Assembly: GCA_030018415.1 (NCBI GenBank)
Contig: JASEGC010000001.1
Span: 407,033-471,032 of the forward strand
Length of the DNA stretch: 64,000 nt
Direction of reading: 5' to 3'
Origin: Candidatus Aenigmatarchaeota archaeon
GTDB taxonomy: Archaea; Aenigmatarchaeota; Aenigmatarchaeia; CG10238-14
The position numbers were made by a program, and so were the translations under genes. This document shows positions 10,441 through 61,507 of the stretch, one piece after another; position 1 is the first letter of the stretch; each line of letters starts with the position of its first letter. The notes beneath the pieces are model-generated. The model did not search any database and was not told the DNA's origin. It saw only the letters and a list, made by a program, of their open reading frames with translations.

Positions 10441-11853
10441 TTATTTAATCTCTATCCTTTTACCTTCCTTGGCTAATTTGATCCTCGTCATTTTCTCATC
10501 TATCAACTCCAAGAAAAGACTGGGGAATTCAGAATGAACCGGTATCAAGATTTCAGGACAAACTTCTTTCAGTATCCCAGACAACTGTTCAGGAGAGCAA
10601 TGACCAGAAGTATGAGCAAACTTCATCTTCAACCCGCAGAGTTTAATCCAATTCTTCAGTCTTTCGTAAGTAAAGACCTCTTCCTCAGAATATGGCTCAG
10701 CCTTGCCGTAGACGTAAGTACCAGGAACGTCCTTGTCAACAGGCTTGAACTGAATCATCGTGCTTATCCCGTTAGTTGTATAAAGCAAGTATTCTTCCGG
10801 GTTCTTGAGTATCTTCTCTCTTCCATCAGGACCCCAGATAAACCACTCTTCAGCCAATTCTGGATCTTCGATCATTTTCTTCTCATAGTTGCTCCTTCCT
10901 TCACTAAAAACTTCCACGTACTCATCAGTTCCTCTTTGTCTCAGTCTGTTCAAGTATACCAAGAAATCTCCCCTACCAGGCAAACCTTCGAGCAGTCCGG
11001 TCTTTTCTGTTTCCAACAAGATGTAGGCCAGTCTCGATTCTATAATCAACTTTCGTCCATGTTTTTTAGCGACTTCAGCAACAGTCCTTACTCTATCCAA
11101 ATCCACAGAAGAACCATCGTATATTATCAAGTCATCAGTCTTACCCATGATAAAATCGATCTTCCTTTCTACATCTTTCTCAGTCGGTAATTTATGCTTG
11201 TCTGCCTCTCTGGGCTCTTTAGCTAGGTTTGTTCCCTCACAAATCATGCACTTAATATCCTCGTTCTTCAAGTGTTTAACAAAGGCCTTGGTCAAGACAT
11301 TCATGAAACCGGATATTCTGAAGTCGCCAGTGTAAACTATCGTCCCAGCAGACGTATGGATGATGAAAGCATGTGCACCTGGAACAGAGTGGTCGACAGC
11401 GAAAGGATCGACAGTTATGTCTTTTATCACCACATCCTTACCAGTCTTTATCTCTTTGAATTCTAGATGTCCAATCTTCCTTTCCCATGTTTGGTTGTAA
11501 GTCCTGTTCCTGATTTTAATCAAATCTCTCGAATATCTGCCAGTCCAAATAGGTATGTCTTCTCTTATCAAAGGAAGGTATCCGTAATGGTCCATGTGCG
11601 CATGTGACAGTAGGATAGCATCGACGAACGGCTTGCCTCGAGAAAACCTGTAGAAATTATTGAACCTCGGTAAAACGTTGGTCTTGAACAAGTCTTCGAT
11701 GTTTGTCGGCCTCAACTCAGGCCATTCGAAGTAAACCCCTTCTTTTGAGAAAGAAGTCCCGAAATCCAGGAAGACTCTAGTATCTTTATCCTCTAGAAGA
11801 ATCTTGTTACCGCCTATCTCGTTGATACCGCCGAAGAAAGTTAAATTTACCAT
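10441..11853 (-). CDS. metallo-beta-lactamase/beta-CASP ribonuclease, archaeal RNase J-like
   Basis: 470 aa. N-terminus FFGGINEIGGNKILLED, HAHMDHYG motif, and beta-CASP-like C-terminal H motif (AHTSGH). Confidence 0.7.
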   Translation of the reverse strand: MVNLTFFGGINEIGGNKILLEDKDTRVFLDFGTSFSKEGVYFEWPELRPTNIEDLFKTNVLPRFNNFYRFSRGKPFVDAILLSHAHMDHYGYLPLIREDIPIWTGRYSRDLIKIRNRTYNQTWERKIGHLEFKEIKTGKDVVIKDITVDPFAVDHSVPGAHAFIIHTSAGTIVYTGDFRISGFMNVLTKAFVKHLKNEDIKCMICEGTNLAKEPREADKHKLPTEKDVERKIDFIMGKTDDLIIYDGSSVDLDRVRTVAEVAKKHGRKLIIESRLAYILLETEKTGLLEGLPGRGDFLVYLNRLRQRGTDEYVEVFSEGRSNYEKKMIEDPELAEEWFIWGPDGREKILKNPEEYLLYTTNGISTMIQFKPVDKDVPGTYVYGKAEPYSEEEVFTYERLKNWIKLCGLKMKFAHTSGHCSPEQLSGILKEVCPEILIPVHSEFPSLFLELIDEKMTRIKLAKEGKRIEIK

Positions 11854-11892
11854 ACAATCTTTATTTCAAGTTCAAGAGTAAAATCATTATCT

Positions 11893-12526
11893 ATGTCGAT
11901 AAAAGCAGTTCTGTTTGATCTGGACCAGACGTTGATAGATTTTATTAAGATGAAGGTTGAGGCATGCCGATCGGCCATAAAGGCGATGATCAAAGCTGGT
12001 TTAAAAATCGACAAGAGAGAAGGATTGAAAAAGTTGATGGAAACTTACCACAGACTGGGTATAGAATCCGACGTAGCATTCAGTAGATTCCTGGAAGAAC
12101 AAACTGGTAGAATCGACGAAGAAATCTTGAAAGTCGGGATAGATGCATACTTGGAGACTAAGCAACGTTTCCTTAAGCCATATCCATACGTCCTAGAGAC
12201 TTTAGAAACTTTAAAAAACCTGAATTTAAAGCTTGGAATAGTGACTGATGCCCCCAGAAAAAAAGCGATGGGTAGGTTGAATGCTATGGGCATTGTTCAT
12301 TTTTTTTGACGTGATAATAACACTCGATGAGGCTGGAGTCAAGAAACCAAGTAAATTACCCTTTGTACTTGCGATGGAAGAGCTCAGATCGAAACCAGGA
12401 GAAATTTTATTCGTAGGCGACAGCTTAAAAAGGGATATCAAACCTGCTGAAAAATTGGGGATGAAAACCCTACTGATAAAAAAATACGAAGACCTGAAAA
12501 AAATTGAAAAAAAACTCAAAAGTTAG
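11893..12526 (+). pseudogene. HAD-superfamily hydrolase, reading frame broken by one extra T in a T8 run (12300..12307)
   Basis: ORFs 11893..12309 (AVLFDLDQTLIDF, LGIVTDAPRK) and 12281..12526 (FDVIITLDEAGVKKP...FVGDSLKRDI) are the N and C halves of one HAD protein. Deleting one T joins them as ...GIVHFFDVIITLDE. Confidence 0.8.
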
Positions 12527-12864
12527 ATTATTCCACCATTCTTCAAGAAATCCTTTAGTGCTATCCCATCTTCTGCACATACTTTTTTTCTTGGTGGCAG
12601 TATTCTGATCTTGCCATAACCAAAATCGACGACCAAATAAAAAGGGAGACCTTCAAGCTTTTTCTTCATGTATTCGTGAAAATAGAATTTCTTATTCTTG
12701 GTTGATTTCACTTGCAACAGTATGCTTTTTCCATCTTTGATGCATATCAAATCCGCTTCTCCAAGACTCGCACCTGCGCGTATGACCTTCCAATCATGAC
12801 TTTCAAACATCATCCTAATTTTTCTTTCAACCCTGTAACCTTTTTTTTTCGTGTTTGTCATCAA
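12523..12864 (-). CDS. hjc: archaeal Holliday junction resolvase Hjc-like nuclease
   Basis: 113 aa. KKGYRVERKIRMMFESHDWKVIRAGASLGEADLICIKDGKSILLQVKSTK fits the Hjc pattern KGxxxERxL...G..V.R..GS....DLIA...G....IEVK. Confidence 0.6.
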   Translation of the reverse strand: MMTNTKKKGYRVERKIRMMFESHDWKVIRAGASLGEADLICIKDGKSILLQVKSTKNKKFYFHEYMKKKLEGLPFYLVVDFGYGKIRILPPRKKVCAEDGIALKDFLKNGGII

Positions 12865-13102
12865 GATTAATCTGGTGATTATAAAATTTATTTCTAGTTG
12901 TCCAATAATTAAGAAAGGAAAATGAATTACACTCTATTGTCATTTGGTTTGATACATAATGATAAGTTCTTTCATAAGAATAACTGCAAATTTTGAAGAT
13001 CTGAGTAAACAAATAACTTCTGAGGCTGTTAGAGTTAGAAGGAATTGAAAAAGTTATGAAAAGTGAACCTAAATCCACAAAATGGTTACAATTAGCTACA
13101 CG

Positions 13103-13110
13103 TTTATAAG
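13103..13110 (+). promoter_or_regulatory. candidate TATA box upstream of aEF-2
   Basis: TTTATAAG lies 52 nt upstream of the TTG start in an A/T-rich intergenic region. Placement is plausible but untested. Confidence 0.3.
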
Positions 13111-13149
13111 TTTAAAAAACAAAAATGAAAATTTTAAAAAATAAATAAT

Positions 13150-13156
13150 GGAGGTG
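13150..13156 (+). promoter_or_regulatory. Shine-Dalgarno sequence of aEF-2
   Basis: GGAGGTG lies 5 nt upstream of TTG 13162. Confidence 0.6.
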
Positions 13157-13161
13157 AAAAA

Positions 13162-15444
13162 TTGCCCAAAAAAGAAATAACAGAAAGAATATTAGAAGTA
13201 ATGAAAGATCCAACAAGAATCAGAAACATCGCAACATCCTCGCAATAGAATTAGTACCACGCTAATTCTACGAGATTGTCCACCATGGTAAAACAACACT
13301 TACAGATAATTTAGCAATGTTGGCAGGAATGATTTCAGAGAAAGTAGCAGGTGACGTAGAGAAAGGAATGCTTACGTGGTTTGACGAAAGGTTAAATTAA
13401 CCCGTTAACAGGAACGTAAGCGTCAGCTAACCATCTACGGCGCAAATAAAAAAGCGTAAACGTTTCGATGGTTCATGAGTATGAGGGAAAGGATTATTTA
13501 ATAAATCTCGTTGATACACCGGGGCATGTCGACTTCGGCGGGGACGTAATTAAAACACGTTAAACCCGTGCGATGCGAGCGGTCGATGGAACTATAGTTC
13601 TAGTGTGTGCTGTAGAAGGAATAATGCCTCAAACAGAAACAGTGTTCAGACAAGCGTTAAGAGAAAGAGTGAAACCTGTTCTCTTCATCAACAAGGTTGA
13701 TAGGTTAATAAAAGAGTTAAAACTGACGCCAGAATCGATGCAGAAAAGGTTTGAAGATATTATTCGAGATGTTAACATCATCATCCAAAAATATGTAGAG
13801 GAAAGATACAAGGAAAAATGGCTTGTCAGTGTAGCAGAAGGAACGGTAGCTTTCGGCTCTGCGTACAGGAAATGGGCCATATCGATTCCTTTCATGCAGA
13901 AGACTGGTATCAATTTCAAAGATATAATAGACATGGTTAACCAAGGCAGAGATGAAGATTTAGCAAAAAAGGCACCCCTACATCAAGTCGTCCTCGACAT
14001 GATAATCAAACATCTACCGAATCCTTTGGAAGCACAAAAGTACAGACTAGAAAAGGTCTGGAAGGGTAGTTTGAGTACAGATGTAGGGAAGGACATGCTT
14101 GCTTGTAATCCGGACGGAAAGTTAGCGATGATCGTCACAAAAATGGTTCCTGATCCTCACGTAGGGTTTGTCGCAACTGGAAGATTATTCTCTGGAAAAA
14201 TTTTTAAGGGTAAAAATGTTCGATTGATAGGCCTACATAAGACTGAAAAAATACAGCAAGTTGCCATCTATAAAGGAATAACGAGAATTCCTGTAGAAGA
14301 AGTTACAGCTGGCAACATAGCTGCTGTCGTTGGTATCTCAGATGCTTTCACTGGAGAGACTGTCTGCGACGCAGAACAAGTCATCGAGCCTTTTGAAGCA
14401 ATAAAACACATTTTTGAGCCAGTCGTCACCAAAGCAATAGAACCGAAGAATCCGATGGACCTGCCGAAATTGATAAATGCATTGAAAAAGATAGGTAGGG
14501 AGGACACAACACTCCAAGTCAAGATTAACGAAGAGACTGGAGAGTACCTTGTCTCTGGGTTAGGAGAGTTACACCTAGACGCAAAAGTAGAGAGAAAACT
14601 AAAAGAAATGGGTATAGAAGTTGAGGCTTCTCCACCTATTGTAGTATACAGGGAAACTATTGCAACAAAGTCTCGTGTCATAGAGGGCAAATCACCGAAC
14701 AAACACAACAAATTCTATTTCTTCGTCGAACCACTACCTGAAAATGTAATTGAAGCCATGAAACTTGGTGACATACCTTCTGATATTGAAATAAAGAAGA
14801 AGAATATTGAACTACAGAAAAAACTTTCTGTTTTGGGAATGAACTACGAAGATGTGAAGAACATACTGGTTATCCATAGAAAAAACATGCTCATCGACAG
14901 AACTAAGGGAATACAATACTTGAACGAAGTTATAGAAATGATAAAAGAAGGTTTTGTCAGCATAATAGAAGAGGGACCTATGTCGAGGGAACCTTGCGTT
15001 GGTTTGAAAGTTGTATTGACAGATGCTGAGTTGCATGAAGATCCTGTTCATAGAGGACCAGGTCAAGTTTTACCGGCCGTGAAGTATGCGATCAGAACTG
15101 GAATGATGGATGCTGGAATCGTCTTGATGGAACCAAAGCAGATGATCAGGATTGATGTGCCCACAGAATTGATGGGTGGGGTATTAAGAGAGGTTCAAAA
15201 TAGACGAGGAAAGATCCTCGACATATCAGAAGAAAAAGGGGCGTCAATTCTTCAAGCAAAAGTACCAGTCGCAGAAATATTTGGTTTTGATGCAACTTTA
15301 AAATCAATCACAGGTGGGAAAGGTTTTTATAGTTTGATAGATGTTATATTTGAGAAGTTGCCCAGAGAATTACAGGATCAGACAGTCATAAAGATCAGGA
15401 AAAGAAAAGGTCTGAGTGAGAAGATACCAAAAATAGAAGAATAA
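13162..15444 (+). CDS. fusA: translation elongation factor 2 (aEF-2), coding region interrupted by four putative BHB mini-introns
   Basis: Exons are 13162..13244, 13277..13388, 13409..13445, 13460..13548 and 13564..15444, totalling 2202 nt (733 aa). Conserved blocks are [32 protein letters not shown] and NKVDRLI, and the C-terminal 623 aa are intact (ORF track 13573..15444). Unspliced, the 5' part hits stops at 13246, 13398, 13457 and 13561. Confidence 0.85.
13245..13276 (+). other. aEF-2 putative BHB intron 1 (32 nt)
   Basis: Central helix CTCG(13239..13242)/CGAG(13271..13274). 3-nt bulges CA|A and AT|T. Perfect 9-bp inner helix 13246..13254/13262..13270 with a 7-nt loop. Splicing joins ca|t into a His codon, giving ...IATSSHVHHGKTT. 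Confidence 0.7.
13389..13408 (+). other. aEF-2 putative BHB intron 2 (20 nt)
   Basis: Central helix GACG(13383..13386)/CGTT(13403..13406). Bulges AA|A and AA|C. Inner 4-bp helix GGTT(13390..13393)/AACC(13399..13402). Splicing joins FDE to QERKRQLTI. Confidence 0.7.
13446..13459 (+). other. aEF-2 putative BHB intron 3 (14 nt)
   Basis: Central helix GCGC(13440..13443)/GCGT(13454..13457). Bulges AA|A and AA|A. Outer helix ACG(13437..13439)/CGT(13461..13463). Splicing joins a|ac into an Asn codon, giving YGAN-VSMVH. Confidence 0.65.
13549..13563 (+). other. aEF-2 putative BHB intron 4 (15 nt, in frame, contains TAA)
   Basis: Central helix GACG(13543..13546)/CGTT(13558..13561). Bulges TA|A and AA|A. 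5-bp outer exon-exon helix 13538..13542/13565..13569. Splicing joins GGDV to TRAMRAVDG. Confidence 0.7.
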
Positions 15445-37498: not shown

Positions 37499-37524
37499 AA
37501 ATTTATTATATAATTCAAATACAA

Positions 37525-37543
37525 GAGGTGGGATTTGAACCCA
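37525..37543. repeat. 19-nt direct repeat of the tRNA-Leu 3' region (second copy 37909..37927)
   Basis: GAGGTGGGATTTGAACCCA is identical at both positions. The second copy is the T-arm/acceptor part of the tRNA-Leu gene. Confidence 0.85.
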
Positions 37544-37870
37544 TCATAACTTACTCAATATAAATAAGAATAAAAATAACAAGATATAAGCGATAAAGAT
37601 ATAAATAAAAAATTTTACCAAAAGTTTTTTTGATGGAAACATCCACTTCCATCCTTTAGGTACAGGTTCAACAACAAATGCTTTATAACTAATATATCCC
37701 CAAAAAATAATGTAAGCATAAATCGGAACAATTATAATTAAAAACAAATAAAAGTTAAATGAATAAAATTCAAGAAAACGAATCAATGCAAAAGTAATTG
37801 AAAATAATATCAATAACGTCCCAAATAAAATTGAATAGAAAAATCTCATTCTTTTTTTATTCACTTCCAT
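37544..37870 (-). CDS. small integral membrane protein (108 aa), sole ORF between the tRNA-Leu repeat copies
   Basis: Three to four hydrophobic segments. No recognisable family. Confidence 0.4.
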   Translation of the reverse strand: MEVNKKRMRFFYSILFGTLLILFSITFALIRFLEFYSFNFYLFLIIIVPIYAYIIFWGYISYKAFVVEPVPKGWKWMFPSKKLLVKFFIYIFIAYILLFLFLFILSKL

Positions 37871-37903
37871 TAATTATTATTTGCTTTATTAGAATAAAAA
37901 GTG

Positions 37904-37989
37904 TGCGGGAGGTGGGATTTGAACCCACGAAGGCACTAAGCCACTGACTCCTGAAGCCAGCCCTTTAGACCAGACTTAGGTACCCCTGC
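37904..37989 (-). tRNA. tRNA-Leu(CAG), class II, no intron
   Basis: Minus strand reads GCAGGGG-TA-...-CTGGC-TTCAGGA-GTCAG, long variable arm GGC-TTAGT-GCC, then GTGGG-TTCAAAT-CCCAC-CTCCCGC-A. One A3:C70 mismatch in the acceptor stem. Confidence 0.85.
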
Positions 37990-40056: not shown

Positions 40057-40123
40057 GTCTTTAAAACTAACTGTAAAAAGATTTAAAACCTTCTAATTGA
40101 GTAGAAATTAATTGAGTGATACT

Positions 40124-43100
40124 ATGAAGCAAAACTTACTCGTCCTTGACGTGGACTATATCGTCGAAGGAAACAAAGCTATAACAAGGCTTTTTTGCAA
40201 AGACGAAAAAGGTAAAACAGCCCTTGTTATGGATTCTAATTTCGAACCTTATTTTTACGTTATGCCAACTAAAGGAACTCTTGAAAAATTGAAGAAAAAA
40301 ATAGAAGGACTTGACACAAAAAACTTAGAAGCGAAAATCCTGAGGGTAGAGACTGTTGAAAAGAATTGGATGAACGAAGAAACAAAGCTGATTAAAGTTA
40401 CCATCGATAACCCTAGGAGGATTCCAGATGTGAGGAATGCGATAAAAGACTGGAAAGAAGTAGAAGAAACTTACGAGTATAACATCACCTATTACCGCAG
40501 GTACATGATAGATAAACAAATCAAACCAATGGGTTGGGTCGAAGTAGAAGGAGAATTAAAAGAGAGCAACGGATACCAAGTCGATAGAATCATCGAGGCC
40601 AGTTCTGTCAAAGCTACAGACATGGAAAAAGATATCGATTTCAAAGTCTTAGCTTTCGACACAGAGTTCGTCGAAGAAGATGGGAAATCAAAGCTCATCA
40701 TGCTCAGCCTAGTTTTCGATGGAAAATACAAGAGAGTCTTAACTAGCTGCGACTGGAAGGATAAACCGAATTATGTCGAGGTTGTAAGAGATGAGAAAGA
40801 GATCATCCAAAGATTCATGGATATAGTTAAGGAAAAAGACCCAGATTTCATAGTCGGTTACAATTCTGACGGTTTTGACATCCCAAAGATAAAGGATAGA
40901 GCTACGGTATACAAGATGCCTTTGAAGTTGGGAAGAGATAATACCCCTGTCCATGTTGTCAGAAGAGGAAGGATCAGTTCTGCAAAAACTAAGGGAAGGG
41001 TACATATCGATTTGTTCAATTTCATTGATCACATTCTATCTGCTTCTATGCGTAGCGAGGTTTTAACTTTAGATGAAGTTGCTCAAGAATTGCTTGGAAT
41101 TGGAAAGAGGAAAATGAAATACAAGGAAATGGTTGAGATATGGAGCAAAAAAGAACAATTAGGAAGGCTTGCTGAATATTCGCTTTGGGATTCGGAGTTG
41201 ACGCTGAAATTAGCTGAGCATATATTGCCACAGATATTTTCGATAAGCAGGTTAACTGGTTTGCTGCCCTTCGATGCTTCGAGAAATACATACTCTCAAC
41301 TGATTGAGGCATTCTTGATGAGAAGGGCTTTTACAGATAATGTCTTGATTCCAAACAAGCCAAAAACCGAAGAGATAGAGAGAAGAAGGATGGCTCCTGT
41401 TTATAAGGGAGCGATAGTAATCGAGCCTAAAAAAGGAATTCATTCAGATATTTTAGTTTTCGATTTCAGGAGTCTTCCTCCTTGGGAAAAAACTTACGTG
41501 AAAGACCCAGCTGGCTTTATAAAAGTAGTGGAGATAGGCAATTTTGTAGAAAGGTTCCAGAAGAACGGAAAAGTGATCAGAGAAAGCAGAAGCCTTATAA
41601 CTGAATTAAATGGCTGGAAAGCCCTTACTTTCGATGAAGAGAAAAACAAAGTTTGTTGGAAGCCTATTAAAGCAGTCATCAAGCATGAAATTAAATGCCC
41701 TTATTTATTGAAGATCACGACTGAACAAGGCAAACAAATAACGATAACGCCGAATCATAGCATTTTTTCCCTCGATAATGACGGAAAACTAACTCTAGTA
41801 AGAGGAGATGAATTAAGGATCGGAACGAATCTCATACTTCTGAAAAGGATTCCGGTTAGGGAAAATTTAAAGAAATTAGATGTTATGGAACTCTTATCAT
41901 CTCTTTCTCAAAAAATAACGTCAGACTTGTTGATCATTCTTCCAAGGAAGAAACTTCCTCACAAAAAAAGGCTTAAAACTTGGATGAACATCCTAAACGA
42001 ACTGAGAGGGGCCTCTTCGTTAGAAGAGTTGCGCGAGAGGCTTAAGTATCATAGGGCAACGATTAGGAAGAACCTTGTATTGCTGAGAAGGAAGGGATTG
42101 ATAGATTACAGAAATTATAGTGGAATAAAACTCCTTCAAGAAGGAGAGAATTATTTGAAGTTTGTTCTAAACCTTAGACCAACGAGAAAGCGAGGGTTTC
42201 TGCAAGCAAGGTTTAACGACATTAAAAACATTAACGTACCGGAGAAGTTAAAGAAAGACTTATTCCTTAAACAATCAAGAGGAAGATGGAAGAGGATTCT
42301 ACCTTGTGTATTAGAGTTAAACCGTAATACTTGTTGGAGTTTTGGAATTTACGTAGCAGAGGGTTGGATGACTAAACATTCGAGGATCTATTTTTCCACT
42401 TCGGATGAACTCATCAAAAATAGACTGTTAAGAACCCTCTCTTACTTCGAACCGAGTGAATATAAGGATGGGAAGGGTTTTGAAATTTCCATCTCGAACA
42501 AGCCCTTTGCTCTTCTGCTCATCAAACTTTTTGGGCATAATTCCCATCATAAGCATCTTAATCCTTTGCTCTTACAGTTACAGAAAAACCTGAAATTAAA
42601 GTTAATAGAAGGAATGATAGATGGTGATGGCTCTATTGGAGAAACGAAATTTAAATACACCTCTATCTCTGAGAGGTTGATCGATGACTTGAATTTATTA
42701 CTTCTCTCGTTGAGTGTGGGAAGAACATCTTTCATAAGTTCCGGAAAAATAAAGAACCTTTACGTTTACCAGTCACTTGGAAAGATAAAGATAAGAAAAG
42801 GTGTAAGGGAGAGTCATCCACTCTATCTCATCCCAAGGAATTATGTAGAGGATCATATAACATCAACTCTTAAAAATGCACATCGAGGTTCACGAATCGA
42901 TATTCAGAAAGTTGCAGAAAATCTAGTAATCAATGGATGTTTTCCCGAAAAATTAAAATTCTTCTTTGGAAATTGTGGTTTAGAACAGATTAAAAAAATC
43001 GAGAGAATTAAGTATAACGGTTGGGTTTATGATATTTCTGTGAAAGATACTGAAAAATTCTTCGCTGGGAATGGTCTGATATTAGTACATAACTCGTTGT

Positions 43101-43546
43101 ACCCCACGATAATCGTTTCCCACAATATTTCTCCAGAAACTCTTAATTGTGAGCACTCAGAATGTAAAGAAAAAAATAAAGTTCCCGAAAGCAAATGGCA
43201 TTTTTGCACCAGAAAGGAGGGCTTCATACCTAAACATATAAGAGACCTAATCGAAACGAGGAAGAAAATAAAGGAAAAGATGAAAGAGGTTAGAAAGGAT
43301 TCGGTGGAATGGAAGCGGCTGGACAATGAGCAGTATGCTCTAAAAATTTTAGCCAACGCGAGCTATGGTTTTATGGGATATATAGCCGCTAAATGGTATT
43401 GTCGGGAGTGTGCAAGCGCAACTGCGACATTTGGAAGAGCTTATATAACCAAGGTAATAGAGATGGCAAAAGCAAGTGGATTTAAAATTTTGTATGCTGA
43501 CACCGATTCTTGCATGGTAACTATAGAAAAAAGGGGGAGAAAATGA
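40124..43546 (+). CDS. polB: family B DNA polymerase, N-terminal polypeptide (exonuclease plus palm motifs A-C), contains an intein
   Basis: Exo motifs LAFDTEF, YNSDGFDIPKI and YSLWDSELT. Motif A DFR|intein|SLYPTII. Motif B KILANASYGF. Motif C ILYADTDS. Stops 11 codons after motif C. The ATG at 40124 is preferred over the TTG at 40112. Confidence 0.9.
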   Translation: MKQNLLVLDVDYIVEGNKAITRLFCKDEKGKTALVMDSNFEPYFYVMPTKGTLEKLKKKIEGLDTKNLEAKILRVETVEKNWMNEETKLIKVTIDNPRRIPDVRNAIKDWKEVEETYEYNITYYRRYMIDKQIKPMGWVEVEGELKESNGYQVDRIIEASSVKATDMEKDIDFKVLAFDTEFVEEDGKSKLIMLSLVFDGKYKRVLTSCDWKDKPNYVEVVRDEKEIIQRFMDIVKEKDPDFIVGYNSDGFDIPKIKDRATVYKMPLKLGRDNTPVHVVRRGRISSAKTKGRVHIDLFNFIDHILSASMRSEVLTLDEVAQELLGIGKRKMKYKEMVEIWSKKEQLGRLAEYSLWDSELTLKLAEHILPQIFSISRLTGLLPFDASRNTYSQLIEAFLMRRAFTDNVLIPNKPKTEEIERRRMAPVYKGAIVIEPKKGIHSDILVFDFRSLPPWEKTYVKDPAGFIKVVEIGNFVERFQKNGKVIRESRSLITELNGWKALTFDEEKNKVCWKPIKAVIKHEIKCPYLLKITTEQGKQITITPNHSIFSLDNDGKLTLVRGDELRIGTNLILLKRIPVRENLKKLDVMELLSSLSQKITSDLLIILPRKKLPHKKRLKTWMNILNELRGASSLEELRERLKYHRATIRKNLVLLRRKGLIDYRNYSGIKLLQEGENYLKFVLNLRPTRKRGFLQARFNDIKNINVPEKLKKDLFLKQSRGRWKRILPCVLELNRNTCWSFGIYVAEGWMTKHSRIYFSTSDELIKNRLLRTLSYFEPSEYKDGKGFEISISNKPFALLLIKLFGHNSHHKHLNPLLLQLQKNLKLKLIEGMIDGDGSIGETKFKYTSISERLIDDLNLLLLSLSVGRTSFISSGKIKNLYVYQSLGKIKIRKGVRESHPLYLIPRNYVEDHITSTLKNAHRGSRIDIQKVAENLVINGCFPEKLKFFFGNCGLEQIKKIERIKYNGWVYDISVKDTEKFFAGNGLILVHNSLYPTIIVSHNISPETLNCEHSECKEKNKVPESKWHFCTRKEGFIPKHIRDLIETRKKIKEKMKEVRKDSVEWKRLDNEQYALKILANASYGFMGYIAAKWYCRECASATATFGRAYITKVIEMAKASGFKILYADTDSCMVTIEKRGRK
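41471..43093 (+). mobile_element. intein (541 aa) with LAGLIDADG endonuclease domain, inserted in PolB motif A
   Basis: Begins with Ser after VFDFR and ends ...LILVHN before SLYPTII. Block B is TPNHSIF. LAGLIDADG motifs are FGIYVAEGW and LIEGMIDGDGS. Confidence 0.85.
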
Positions 43547-43863
43547 ATTGGAAAGAATTTTTAAAACCAGACTGGAGAAAAATCCTAGTTTTCGTGATTT
43601 CAATAATCATGGGCATTGTTGTTACTCATCCCTTAATCTACCCAGAATACTCTTATTCTTTCCCTTTCCTTCCATTACCTTTTGAGACTGTAGAGATAAG
43701 AGCTGTCCCCTGCCCTCCTGGTGCCCATGAACGTATACCAGGCGTAATACCAGATTGTATGGAAAGTGTTATCATTCTCCAGAATATTCTATTAAATCTT
43801 GTTAGTTATTATCTCATCTCCTGTCTCATAGTTTGGATTTACGATAAGGTGAGGAAGAAATGA
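43543..43863 (+). CDS. small membrane protein (106 aa) occupying the gap between the two PolB polypeptide genes
   Basis: ATGA overlaps at both ends: ATG 43543 overlaps the PolB-N TGA at 43544..43546, and its own TGA at 43861..43863 overlaps the PolB-C ATG at 43860. Two hydrophobic helices flank a Cys/Pro-rich loop (VPCPPGAHERIPGVIPDC). Confidence 0.5.
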   Translation: MNWKEFLKPDWRKILVFVISIIMGIVVTHPLIYPEYSYSFPFLPLPFETVEIRAVPCPPGAHERIPGVIPDCMESVIILQNILLNLVSYYLISCLIVWIYDKVRKK

Positions 43864-44555
43864 AGAAAAGAGAGCAATTAATTAAAAAGGCTGAAGAATT
43901 TATAGAAAAAGTTAACGAACAACTTCCAGGAATAATTGAACTAGAATTCAGAGACCTGTATGAAGGGGGGATATTTGTAGCAAGAAGGGAAAAAGAAGTT
44001 GGAGCGAAGAAAAGATATGCTCTAATTGATTATCAAGGGAATTTAGAAGTCAGAGGATTCGAAGCTATAAGAAGAGATTGGTGCCAGTTAAGCAAGGACA
44101 TACAAAGAAAAGTTCTGACTATAATCCTTAGAGATAAAGACCCTGCTAAAGCCGTTCAACTAGTCAGAGAAACAATTAAAAAAATAAAAAGTGGGGATGT
44201 GAAGTTGGAAGACCTAACGATTTTTGAACAGATAACAAGGCCTCTATCTTCTTACGAACAGATAGGACCGCACGTTAAGGCAGCTCAGAAATCAAAGGCC
44301 AAGGGCAGACTTGTGGGCGAGGGTAGTGTCATCGGTTTTGTCATAGTCAAAGGTTCGGGTAGTATTTCAGATCGTGCCATGCCGGTTGAAGACGTAAAAG
44401 AAGGAGAGTACGACCCAGAATATTATATCAACAACCAAGTCTTACCAGCAGCGATGCGCGTTCTACAGGCTTTAGAGATAACAGAACAACAAGTTTTATC
44501 TGGAAGAGTCCAGGCTAAGTTAGGAGAATGGTTTAAAAAAGTTAACTACAAGTAA
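43860..44555 (+). CDS. polB: family B DNA polymerase, C-terminal polypeptide (thumb domain)
   Basis: EFIEKVNEQLPGIIELEFRDLYEGGIFV...KKRYALID...VRGFEAIRRDWC...ITRPLSSYEQIGPHVKAA...YYINNQVLPA aligns colinearly with the region after motif C of archaeal PolB. Confidence 0.85.
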   Translation: MKKREQLIKKAEEFIEKVNEQLPGIIELEFRDLYEGGIFVARREKEVGAKKRYALIDYQGNLEVRGFEAIRRDWCQLSKDIQRKVLTIILRDKDPAKAVQLVRETIKKIKSGDVKLEDLTIFEQITRPLSSYEQIGPHVKAAQKSKAKGRLVGEGSVIGFVIVKGSGSISDRAMPVEDVKEGEYDPEYYINNQVLPAAMRVLQALEITEQQVLSGRVQAKLGEWFKKVNYK

Positions 44556-56638: not shown

Positions 56639-56715
56639 TGCTTTTCACAAACAATTAAGATAACTTAAAATATTAAAAAATGCCCTTGTCGGGATTCGAA
56701 CCCGAATCACAGGCT

Positions 56716-56728
56716 TGCTGCTATCCAA
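56716..56728 (-). other. 13-nt BHB intron at the canonical 37/38 position of tRNA-Arg
   Basis: Intron TTGGATAGCAGCA. Central helix CTGC/GCAG (index 47-50 / 60-63), bulges GG|T and CA|A. The outer helix is the anticodon stem. Confidence 0.75.
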
Positions 56729-56736
56729 CCGCAGGC

Positions 56737-56749
56737 TTATACACGTGTT
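56737..56749 (-). other. 13-nt BHB intron inside the anticodon-stem 5' strand (between tRNA positions 29 and 30) of tRNA-Arg
   Basis: Intron AACACGTGTATAA. Central helix ATAC/GTAT (tRNA index 26-29 / 39-42), 9-nt loop, junctions 2 nt 3' of each strand (AG|A and AA|G). Confidence 0.7.
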
Positions 56750-56858
56750 CTGTATCTTATCCAAGTTGGACCACAAGGGCAACGATAAACTATTTAAAAG
56801 ATATAATCCCTAAGAAGAAAATACTTAATAAAATCTTAAAGGTGTTGGATTGGCAGAA

Positions 56859-60627: not shown

Positions 60628-60711
60628 AGTTAGATTGATGCCAAGTTTTTTCCAAACAGCACGAATTAAAATAAAAACTATCTGTATAAAGAATCTTTAA
60701 TAATTAACTAA

Positions 60712-61479
60712 TTAGCCACAAAATAATTCTTCTCCTAGTTTTAGAGTTTCTTTTTTGAATAAATGCATCAAGAGAACTGCCAGGATTAAGAAAATTAATA
60801 ATCTGAGTAGTTTTTTGGGGTGTGGTGGTGATGACTGTCGTCACTTGAGTAGTTGTTGACGATGTTATTACGATGATATTGTAGTAATAACAGTCGAAGT
60901 TGTAGTTGATGTTAACACCTCATCGTAATAAGTGTTATACCAGAATAGGACTCAGAAGTTACTTTTACAGCTTTTATAGACTTGTCAGATAAAAATTGGT
61001 TATGTTTTTTAAGACAGAAGCTGCAATTCTTATGTATGAATCGTTCCAACCAGAAACAACTAAAGCATAATATCCTGGTTTGAAGCCGTCATAGATTTTG
61101 ATTATAGCTGAATCCTTTGGTATACCAGATTCTAGACCACATGAAGGATAGATTTTTCCCATGATTAATGCAATAAGTTTATTCCTATGAGGACTACCGA
61201 TTATCAAGAAATTTTTATTTATGTCGTATGGGTTAACGATATCCCTATCTAATTTTGTTTCAATACTGATTCCAGGTAATTCACCTTTAATACCTATTAC
61301 TATTTCTGTTGAAGCAGCGACATCAGATGCTGAACCTTCTTTATTACAACTACGTAAATTTCTGGTGATAGGAAACTTGGATAATCACTTAAATTAGGAT
61401 AGCCAGCATAAGAAGAACCAAAAAATAATAGAACAACCAACAGAAAGAAGAACAATCTTGTTATTTTCATAAATTTCAT
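60712..61479 (-). pseudogene. surface (S-layer-domain-like) protein gene broken by several frameshifts
   Basis: Minus strand has a signal peptide MKFMKITRLFFFLLVVLLFF. The S-layer-type domain GSASDVAASTEIVIG...NFLIIGSPHRNKLI...YALVVSGWNDSYIRIAASVL is in a second frame. The Thr-rich linker and C-terminal TM (LLIFLILAVLLMHLF) are in further frames. Confidence 0.6.
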
Positions 61480-61507
61480 TTTTTTGTATTTGTTGGATAA
61501 AAAATAG

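Follow-up and report, generated by a model that had tools for sequence, protein, structure and literature searches.

Four short predicted introns in the aEF-2 gene of an Aenigmatarchaeota archaeon, probably acquired together with their flanking exons

We analysed a 64-kb window, that is, the whole stretch of 64,000 nt at positions 407,033 to 471,032 (forward strand) of contig JASEGC010000001.1 in the Candidatus Aenigmatarchaeota archaeon assembly GCA_030018415.1, and focused on its gene for archaeal elongation factor 2 (aEF-2). The window is A/T-rich (~36% G+C), and aEF-2 similarity places it in Aenigmatarchaeota (DPANN). Open reading frame (ORF) finders call aEF-2 only from an internal ATG (13573..15444, 623 aa). 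We found that the gene begins further upstream, at a TTG at 13162 preceded by a GGAGGTGA ribosome-binding site, that it ends at 15444, and that its first 400 nt are interrupted by four inserts of 32, 20, 14 and 15 nt. When the four inserts were deleted in silico, a single 2202-nt ORF with a 733-aa product was obtained. This product was colinear with the Pyrococcus horikoshii aEF-2 structure 5h7j over residues 4–729 (E = 5e-262), with zero indels at the four splice junctions. The inserts are predicted to be introns and are called so below; a slash marks a cut.

13162..15444, forward strand: aEF-2 gene, TTG start, five exons, spliced product of 733 aa
13245-13276, forward strand: intron 1, 32 nt, in the P-loop (SS/HV); CTCG CA/A ... 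CGAG AT/T; full bulge-helix-bulge with a 9-bp inner hairpin
13389-13408, forward strand: intron 2, 20 nt, FDE/Q; GACG AA/A GGTTAAATTAACC CGTT AA/C; full bulge-helix-bulge
within 13389-13408, forward strand: inner hairpin of intron 2, GGTTA-AAT-TAACC
13446-13459, forward strand: intron 3, 14 nt, GA/NV; GCGC AA/A TAAAAAA GCGT AA/A; bulge-helix-loop form
13549-13563, forward strand: intron 4, 15 nt, GDV/T; GACG TA/A TTAAAACA CGTT AA/A; bulge-helix-loop form

Four further inserts of the same kind were found in two tRNA genes of the window.

874..975, forward strand: tRNA-Asp(GUC) gene with two mini-introns
896-908, forward strand: tRNA-Asp D-loop intron ATGACAAGGCTAA, 13 nt; GGTC TA/A ... GGCT AA/A
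933-948, forward strand: tRNA-Asp variable-loop intron, 16 nt; CCTG TG/A ... CGGG AT/A
56681..56780, reverse strand: tRNA-Arg(GCG) gene with two 13-nt introns
56737-56749, reverse strand: tRNA-Arg intron 1 AACACGTGTATAA, 5′ side of the anticodon stem; ATAC AG/A ... GTAT AA/G
56716-56728, reverse strand: tRNA-Arg intron 2, canonical position 37/38; CTGC GG/T ... GCAG CA/A

Both tRNA genes were missed or under-scored by ARAGORN and Rfam, the tRNA-Asp gene being undetected by ARAGORN and below the Rfam threshold (27.8 bits). Once both inserts were removed from each gene, ARAGORN returned clean cloverleafs for tRNA-Arg(GCG) and tRNA-Asp(GUC).

A common architecture was recognized in these inserts. 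Read 5′ to 3′, four exon bases (C) are followed by a 3-nt bulge that is cut after its second base, by a loop or hairpin, by four intron bases (C′) complementary to C, and by a second NN/N bulge that is also cut after its second base. This rule was fitted by all eight window introns and by 10 introns in relatives, and its defining helix was fully paired in 13 of 14 aEF-2 introns from six lineages, the remaining one having three of the four pairs. In the window introns the cut sites lie on opposite strands and are separated by a 4-bp helix, as in the archaeal bulge-helix-bulge (BHB) motif or its relaxed bulge-helix-loop (BHL) version. Introns 1 and 2 possess an inner hairpin and form a full BHB; introns 3 and 4, like the tRNA mini-introns, have just a loop of 6–9 nt and are cut in this hairpin loop at the 5′ end and in a canonical 3-nt bulge at the 3′ end. 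This relaxed form is named bulge-helix-loop or HBh′. Unconstrained minimum free energy folding with RNAfold (10–14 nt flanks) recovered the helix together with its 3-nt 3′ bulge in each of the five introns folded, namely the four of aEF-2 and tRNA-Arg intron 1. Furthermore, the first intron base was A in 15 of the 18 introns, corresponding to 10 of 12 independent sites, and the bulges were A/T-rich. Collectively, these data suggest that the inserts are probably genuine archaeal endonuclease-type (BHB/BHL) introns. By analogy with known BHB introns, a splicing endonuclease would excise them from the aEF-2 pre-mRNA and the pre-tRNAs and an RtcB-type ligase would rejoin the exons, while the loop-type 5′ sites would need an endonuclease of broad specificity.

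The comparison of intron presence and absence at orthologous sites, proposed in an earlier note on this DNA, was run on 61 aEF-2 loci (22 GTDB genomes, 38 JGI metagenome contigs and one Logan contig identical to the window; individual loci carry L numbers). The closest public relatives were metagenome-assembled genomes and metagenome contigs with 82–90% aa identity in aEF-2. We found that the gene is uninterrupted in at least ten close relatives whose 5′ end was read (82–90% identity; L001, L016, L021, L024-L026, L033, L055, L059 and L061), and that closer partial relatives (83–90% identity) are likewise intronless. In a tree of aEF-2 residues 171–732 the window was nested in a clade of 11 sequences, all of them intronless. 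Introns at the window's own sites 1, 2 and 4 were found in distant lineages with 66–74% aa identity, together with introns at further sites.

Site 1, orthologues of window intron 1: L013 (31 nt) and L047 (32 nt)
Site 2, orthologue of window intron 2: L038 (20 nt), same flanks
Site 4, orthologues of window intron 4: L046 (17 nt) and L047 (16 nt)
Further aEF-2 intron in L048: LAGA/G, 24 nt
Further aEF-2 intron in L048: HVD/F, 30 nt
Further aEF-2 intron in L047: inside the His codon of DTPGH, 21 nt
Further aEF-2 introns in L046 (24 nt) and L047 (21 nt): MR/AV

Across the phylum this amounts to at least nine intron sites in the aEF-2 G domain, the window's four and five in more distant lineages, with up to four introns per allele. 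Same-site introns were alike outside the positions that the architecture forces (AGGT...ACCCGTTAA at site 2, AAAANACGTTAA at site 4). RNAalifold analysis, with two to three sequences per site, showed that 8 of 14 pairs at site 1 had changed on both sides, including exon–intron pairs; one compensatory pair was found in the inner helix at site 2 (window versus L038) and two at site 5, where the canonical BHB was recovered. Because of this same-site sharing and these compensatory changes, each site appears to hold its own intron lineage, and introns 2 and 4 appear to represent long separate lineages since each has its own orthologues (L038 for the former, L046 and L047 for the latter).

Intron-bearing alleles appear to have non-ATG starts (TTG at 13162 in the window, apparently ATA at ~1075 in L047 and ACG at ~1287 in L013), and the aligned start position sits behind a GGAGGTGA or GGGGGTGA site; ATG is the start in close intronless relatives such as L064. 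This Logan contig, which has the most similar aEF-2 N-terminus (90% aa), contains a 1-nt frameshift at residue 168 (~650-660) that leads to two called ORFs. The truncated EF-2 database proteins P0001, P0003 and P0006 were considered as candidates for new introns and rejected, the truncations being caused by contig ends or a 1-nt frameshift.

The exons themselves were compared at third codon positions. Window identity to L055 and L024 was 65 and 61%, respectively, over codons 116–732 and fell to 37 and 34%, the background level, over codons 1–115, recovering after about codon 110. These two relatives were 84% identical to each other over the downstream codons and 85% over codons 1–115. Identity to the intron-bearing alleles L047, L038 and L045 took the opposite course, with 38, 41 and 40% over codons 116–732 and 53, 55 and 50% over codons 1–115. 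A maximum chi-square test with L055 and L047 as parents placed the breakpoint at codon 110, two to three codons past intron 4 (χ2 = 88.7, a value reached in 0 of 1000 permutations); upstream of this codon, informative sites divided 26:58 between L055 and L047, and downstream of it 407:101. Controls with L025 and L024 gave values of 7.5 and 3.9. Neighbour-joining nucleotide trees agreed: for codons 1–110 the window's sister lay outside its own clade in 200 of 200 bootstraps and was L047, a four-intron allele, and for codons 116–732 the sister group lay inside the window's intronless clade, again in 200 of 200. When the region was aligned with L055 and L024 using blastn, similarity was 81–84% and colinear up to 12902, undetectable in 12903-13277 and restored downstream, where the long high-scoring segment pair starts at 13458. 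The left edge of the tract falls between 12903 and ~13137, and synteny with both relatives is retained on its two flanks.

12903..13560, forward strand: tract of foreign ancestry, ~650 bp, covering the upstream intergenic region, exons 1–4 and all four introns

The four introns probably arrived as a block by homologous recombination, because the trees are incongruent in all 200 bootstraps and the breakpoint falls at codon 110. We propose that a ~650-bp 5′ segment with its four introns would have replaced an intronless 5′ end of the kind seen in the close relatives. The donor would belong to a divergent branch of Aenigmatarchaeota with affinity to L047, L038 and L045, alleles that carry introns, and the event would represent lateral transfer at the level of the allele with co-conversion of flanking exons. 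L047 has a breakpoint of its own, at codon 122 (χ2 = 41.7, 0 of 1000 permutations), which is a second case of co-conversion. No viral contigs carrying the 5′ intron cassette were found.

The earlier note had suggested that the resemblance of introns from one site to another, and across host genes with no relationship, is the mark of one propagating cassette family. The strings that it quoted were all present where it placed them, among them the intron 3 variant (GCGCAA/A ... GCGTAA/A) and the GGCTAA/A end of the tRNA-Asp D-loop intron. The strings common to introns 2 and 4, said to share both halves of their core, were likewise confirmed; sharing beyond chance was not, and reduces to the one exon tetramer GACG. 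This tetramer is exonic at both sites, comprising the Asp codon GAC and the first G of Glu (GAA) or Val (GTA), and CGTT is shared because the architecture requires it to pair with GACG, so that there is one coincidence rather than two. At site 1 the intron tetramer co-varies with synonymous exon changes (CTCG with CGAG in the window, GTCT with GGGC in L047). The heptamer AACACGT does occur in both intron 4 and tRNA-Arg intron 1 and is without statistical significance (P = 0.28–0.46); in the former it overlaps the pairing tetramer (AACA+CGT/T) and in the latter it lies wholly in the first base and the loop. As to the statement that all inserts start with A and most end in TAA, we found an initial A in seven of the eight window introns and a final TAA in five.

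Shuffle tests were then used to evaluate similarity between sites. Among seven window mini-introns, the canonical 37/38 tRNA-Arg intron being excluded, the longest k-mer common to any two was 7 nt, with P = 0.28 for whole-intron shuffles and P = 0.46 when only the unconstrained part was shuffled; the unconstrained parts alone shared at most 5 nt (P = 0.76). When relatives were included (18 introns), the between-site maximum was 9 nt (TTAAAACAC, P = 0.21). The motif scan that had been suggested as a check, carried out over the window with C4-NAA-X5..14-C4′-A[AT], gave 742 occurrences versus 709±33 in dinucleotide shuffles (z = 1.0), and the motif holds too little information to discriminate. 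The proposed search for further ORFs made contiguous by intron removal yielded aEF-2 as the only interrupted protein gene. It was performed by tblastn of relatives' ORFs against the window and by all-against-all comparison over the 61 loci, and no intron-type break was found in other protein genes, whether in the ~30 kb of the window to which relatives' ORFs aligned or in up to 10 kb on either side of the 61 loci, the other signals being mostly gene boundaries or shadow ORFs on the antisense strand. The remaining window genes had full-length Pfam coverage, and a blind scan for 8–120-nt deletions that fuse two open frames was swamped by ordinary gene boundaries.

With between-site similarity not above chance, a transposing cassette family is therefore not supported, and we consider it unlikely that one family of short BHB cassettes has moved, by reverse splicing or DNA-level insertion, into aEF-2, tRNA-Arg and tRNA-Asp. 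Such a family would account for GACG...CGTTAA at introns 2 and 4, for the GGCGCA context common to intron 3 and the L048 site-1b intron, for the shared 7-mer and for the 9-mer, which joins L048 site 1b to window intron 4; in addition, simulation gave P = 0.03–0.06 that two of four sites in the aEF-2 region share an exon tetramer. However, the exon dictates the shared intron tetramer, the k-mers are non-significant (P = 0.21–0.76), AACACGT stands in differing structural registers in intron 4 and tRNA-Arg intron 1, distant lineages hold one set of orthologues for intron 2 and another for intron 4, no intron occupies the third GACGTA of this exon region (coding-sequence position 159), and no other protein gene among those compared is interrupted. 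The alternative that the earlier note had allowed, one endonuclease recognition context, was supported by the prevalence of A as the first base and by the A/T-rich bulges. Its suggestion of spread by recombination is supported between genomes, at the same sites and as a block with flanking exons, and is not supported for jumping between sites. The look-alike ends (GACG...CGTTAA, initial A, final TAA) are thus probably the outcome of convergence under pairing and bulge constraints, since the 3′ tetramer must complement the exon and the enzyme or the context favours A/T in the bulges, which would make unrelated introns look alike. Taken jointly, genuine introns, their import into aEF-2 as a block and the convergence of their ends form an interpretation that we regard as likely.

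A purely vertical history, in which the ancestral aEF-2 of Aenigmatarchaeota had all the introns, many lineages lost them (for example by cDNA-mediated conversion) and the window retained them, would fit the presence of orthologues of introns 1, 2 and 4 in lineages as distant as 66–74% aa identity, and a single cDNA conversion could strip all the clustered introns together. We nevertheless judge it improbable, as the clade of the window would have had to lose every intron at least three times independently, and the window's exons 1–4 match its closest relatives only at the background third-position level and resemble another clade more. It is disfavoured by the incongruence in 200 of 200 bootstraps, and cDNA-mediated loss cannot explain the mosaic because it would leave synonymous sites unchanged. 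An artefact, whether an assembly chimera of co-occurring populations, mistakes introduced by sequencing or assembly, or damage to a gene in decay, has in its favour the homopolymer-type frameshifts in other window genes (12300; 60700-61480) and the fact that the independent Logan contig L023 ends within the tract, at 13423. Against it stand inserts of 14–32 nt that are structured and obey the rule at eight window sites and in 10 introns of relatives from independent assemblies, as well as introns 3 and 4, which are identical in L023. A chimera would moreover need two switches within 650 bp between populations that have both flanks in common, and aEF-2 is a single-copy, essential gene whose exons are clearly under purifying selection. 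We regard an artefact as very improbable indeed.

Several observations weigh against the interpretation of genuine introns, imported as a block and with convergent ends. The window is a metagenome assembly with several frameshifts, and no EndA or RtcB gene was found within its 64 kb. No database protein was identical to the spliced aEF-2 N-terminus in a search for transcript-derived protein, the best match being 90%. The donor lies outside the sampled lineages, the best match to the 5′ tract has only ~80% nt identity, and no orthologue of intron 3 was found among the 61 loci, so that this intron is so far present in the window only and may be a separate gain. As for convergence, shuffle tests on strings of 6–25 nt have little power for old relatedness, and the recurrence of GACG at two of the four sites (the simulated P value given above) leaves room for a weak target preference at this tetramer.

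A LAGLIDADG intein of ~1.5–1.6 kb was found after HHGK in the aEF-2 P-loop (window equivalent ~13292) in at least 13 related loci (L011-L014, L020, L039-L044, L049 and L060). L013 has this intein and a site-1 BHB intron together, the intron lying 16 nt upstream of the intein. The aEF-2 intein is absent from the window, and the window introns, at 13–32 nt, have no coding capacity. Without a homing endonuclease of their own, any drive would therefore come from elsewhere, or transfer would be passive. Gene conversion driven by the intein, with the introns hitch-hiking, is an attractive possibility. More broadly, and only as a tentative suggestion, the G-domain end of aEF-2 could be a hotspot where a 5′ cassette of non-coding mini BHB introns passes by recombination from one lineage to another, perhaps intein-driven or retained for a dependence of EF-2 synthesis on tRNA splicing. 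If true, introns would have a hitherto undescribed way to spread among prokaryotic protein genes, requiring neither a reverse transcriptase nor an intron-encoded endonuclease.

Endonuclease-type introns in archaeal protein genes have been known until now essentially from cbf5 of Crenarchaeota, reportedly described in Watanabe 2002 and Yoshinari 2006. Judged by their sequences, the aEF-2 inserts appear to be ordinary BHB or BHL introns; what is unusual is their host gene, density and small size, and their lateral history at the level of the allele appears demonstrable. A DPANN archaeon would carry four introns, some of only 14–15 nt, in a translation factor that is both essential and highly expressed, and the window would provide a dated and testable example of intron movement as a block, by homologous recombination and with co-converted exons. 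There are practical consequences too: gene callers shorten such genes, as in the 623-aa call for aEF-2, tRNA finders overlook the tRNAs, and likeness of BHB intron ends is no evidence of common descent. The findings also raise the question of how an endonuclease tells the few true sites from ~700 motif look-alikes in 64 kb.

We next compared these introns with known systems. Our literature search on protein-coding BHB introns returned only those of Crenarchaeota cbf5, which encodes the Cbf5 pseudouridine synthase (Yokobori 2009, PMC2738675) and is still the sole example cited in endonuclease papers of 2018–2025; it returned no reports of aEF-2 introns. Both cases involve an endonuclease-type intron in an mRNA, a BHB at the exon–intron junctions and patchy gain and loss among relatives. 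Unlike cbf5, the present case concerns aEF-2 in the DPANN phylum Aenigmatarchaeota, with four introns per gene, at least nine sites in the G domain, several introns of only 14–17 nt that have no inner helix, and direct evidence of lateral import with flanking exons. Transposition of tRNA introns has been proposed for Thermoproteales (Fujishima et al. 2010, as summarised in PMC4090602). Common ground lies in the notion that BHB introns may multiply within a lineage and in the use of non-canonical tRNA positions, but the Thermoproteales family is defined by high whole-intron similarity across sites, whereas here similarity between sites is at chance level and spread is seen between genomes at the same site. 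Like homing introns and inteins, for example archaeal rDNA introns with LAGLIDADG endonucleases, the aEF-2 inserts probably arrived with a short donor exon tract, and they occupy the most conserved motifs (P-loop, DxxG region); unlike them, they encode no homing endonuclease. Relaxed (bulge-helix-loop) and multiple non-canonical tRNA introns in DPANN/ARMAN have been linked to broad-specificity splicing endonucleases (PMC5829648, PMC12397907), and loop-bearing alpha4-type enzymes occur in several DPANN lineages in association with disrupted tRNA genes (PMC5829648). The window introns resemble these in being very short, in their D-loop, variable-loop and anticodon-stem positions, and in the placement of their cuts, a loop at the 5′ end and a 3-nt bulge at the 3′ end; they differ in that the architecture is also present in a protein-coding gene.

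Three other disrupted genes of the window were considered as intron candidates and rejected. The HAD-family hydrolase gene at 11893-12526 (forward strand) has a +1 frameshift in a T8 run at ~12300-12308 and is a single 211-aa ORF in relatives such as L024, so that either a sequencing error or a pseudogene is indicated. The fragmented gene at 60700-61480 (reverse strand), a secreted S-layer-like gene with a signal peptide and a ‘YVVV...GSASDVAA’ motif, has two or more 1-nt frameshifts, including one within an A6 run, and either is decaying or carries assembly errors. The gap at 43544-43860 in the family-B DNA polymerase gene (40112-44555, forward strand) is occupied by a small inserted ORF. This gene is in three pieces: the N-terminal part (40112..43546), with a LAGLIDADG intein at ~41482-43070, ends just past the catalytic YADTDS motif; next comes an ORF of 106 aa predicted to encode a membrane protein (43543..43863), which overlaps its neighbours through an ATGA stop/start on either side; and the C-terminal part occupies 43860..44555. 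The polymerase is contiguous, at ~820–850 aa, in L034, L036, L038, L041 and L044, and the window gene looks as though it had been split by the small ORF.

Further features were noted around aEF-2 and elsewhere in the window. Between rps7 and aEF-2 lie the HAD gene and an Hjc resolvase gene (12523..12864, reverse strand), as they do in L055 and L024; in L062 and L063 rps7 directly adjoins aEF-2. L055 and L024, which are colinear with the window apart from this, lack its 1.8-kb segment at 10077-11879, which carries a metallo-beta-lactamase/beta-CASP-type RNase-like gene (10441..11853, reverse strand). The last 19 nt of tRNA-Leu(CAG) (37903-37989, reverse strand), comprising the T-arm and acceptor (TGGGTTCAAATCCCACCTC), are repeated ~380 nt downstream at 37523-37541 (reverse strand), and between the two copies lies a 108-aa ORF without annotation (37544..37870); the arrangement resembles the att-site duplication left by an integrated element that is small or degraded. 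Finally, RNA polymerase B′ and A′ form one ORF of 1446 aa (2914-7254, forward strand; junction ~4690) with no stop or start between them, and this single frame is also found in many related loci, the two genes being separate in L034.

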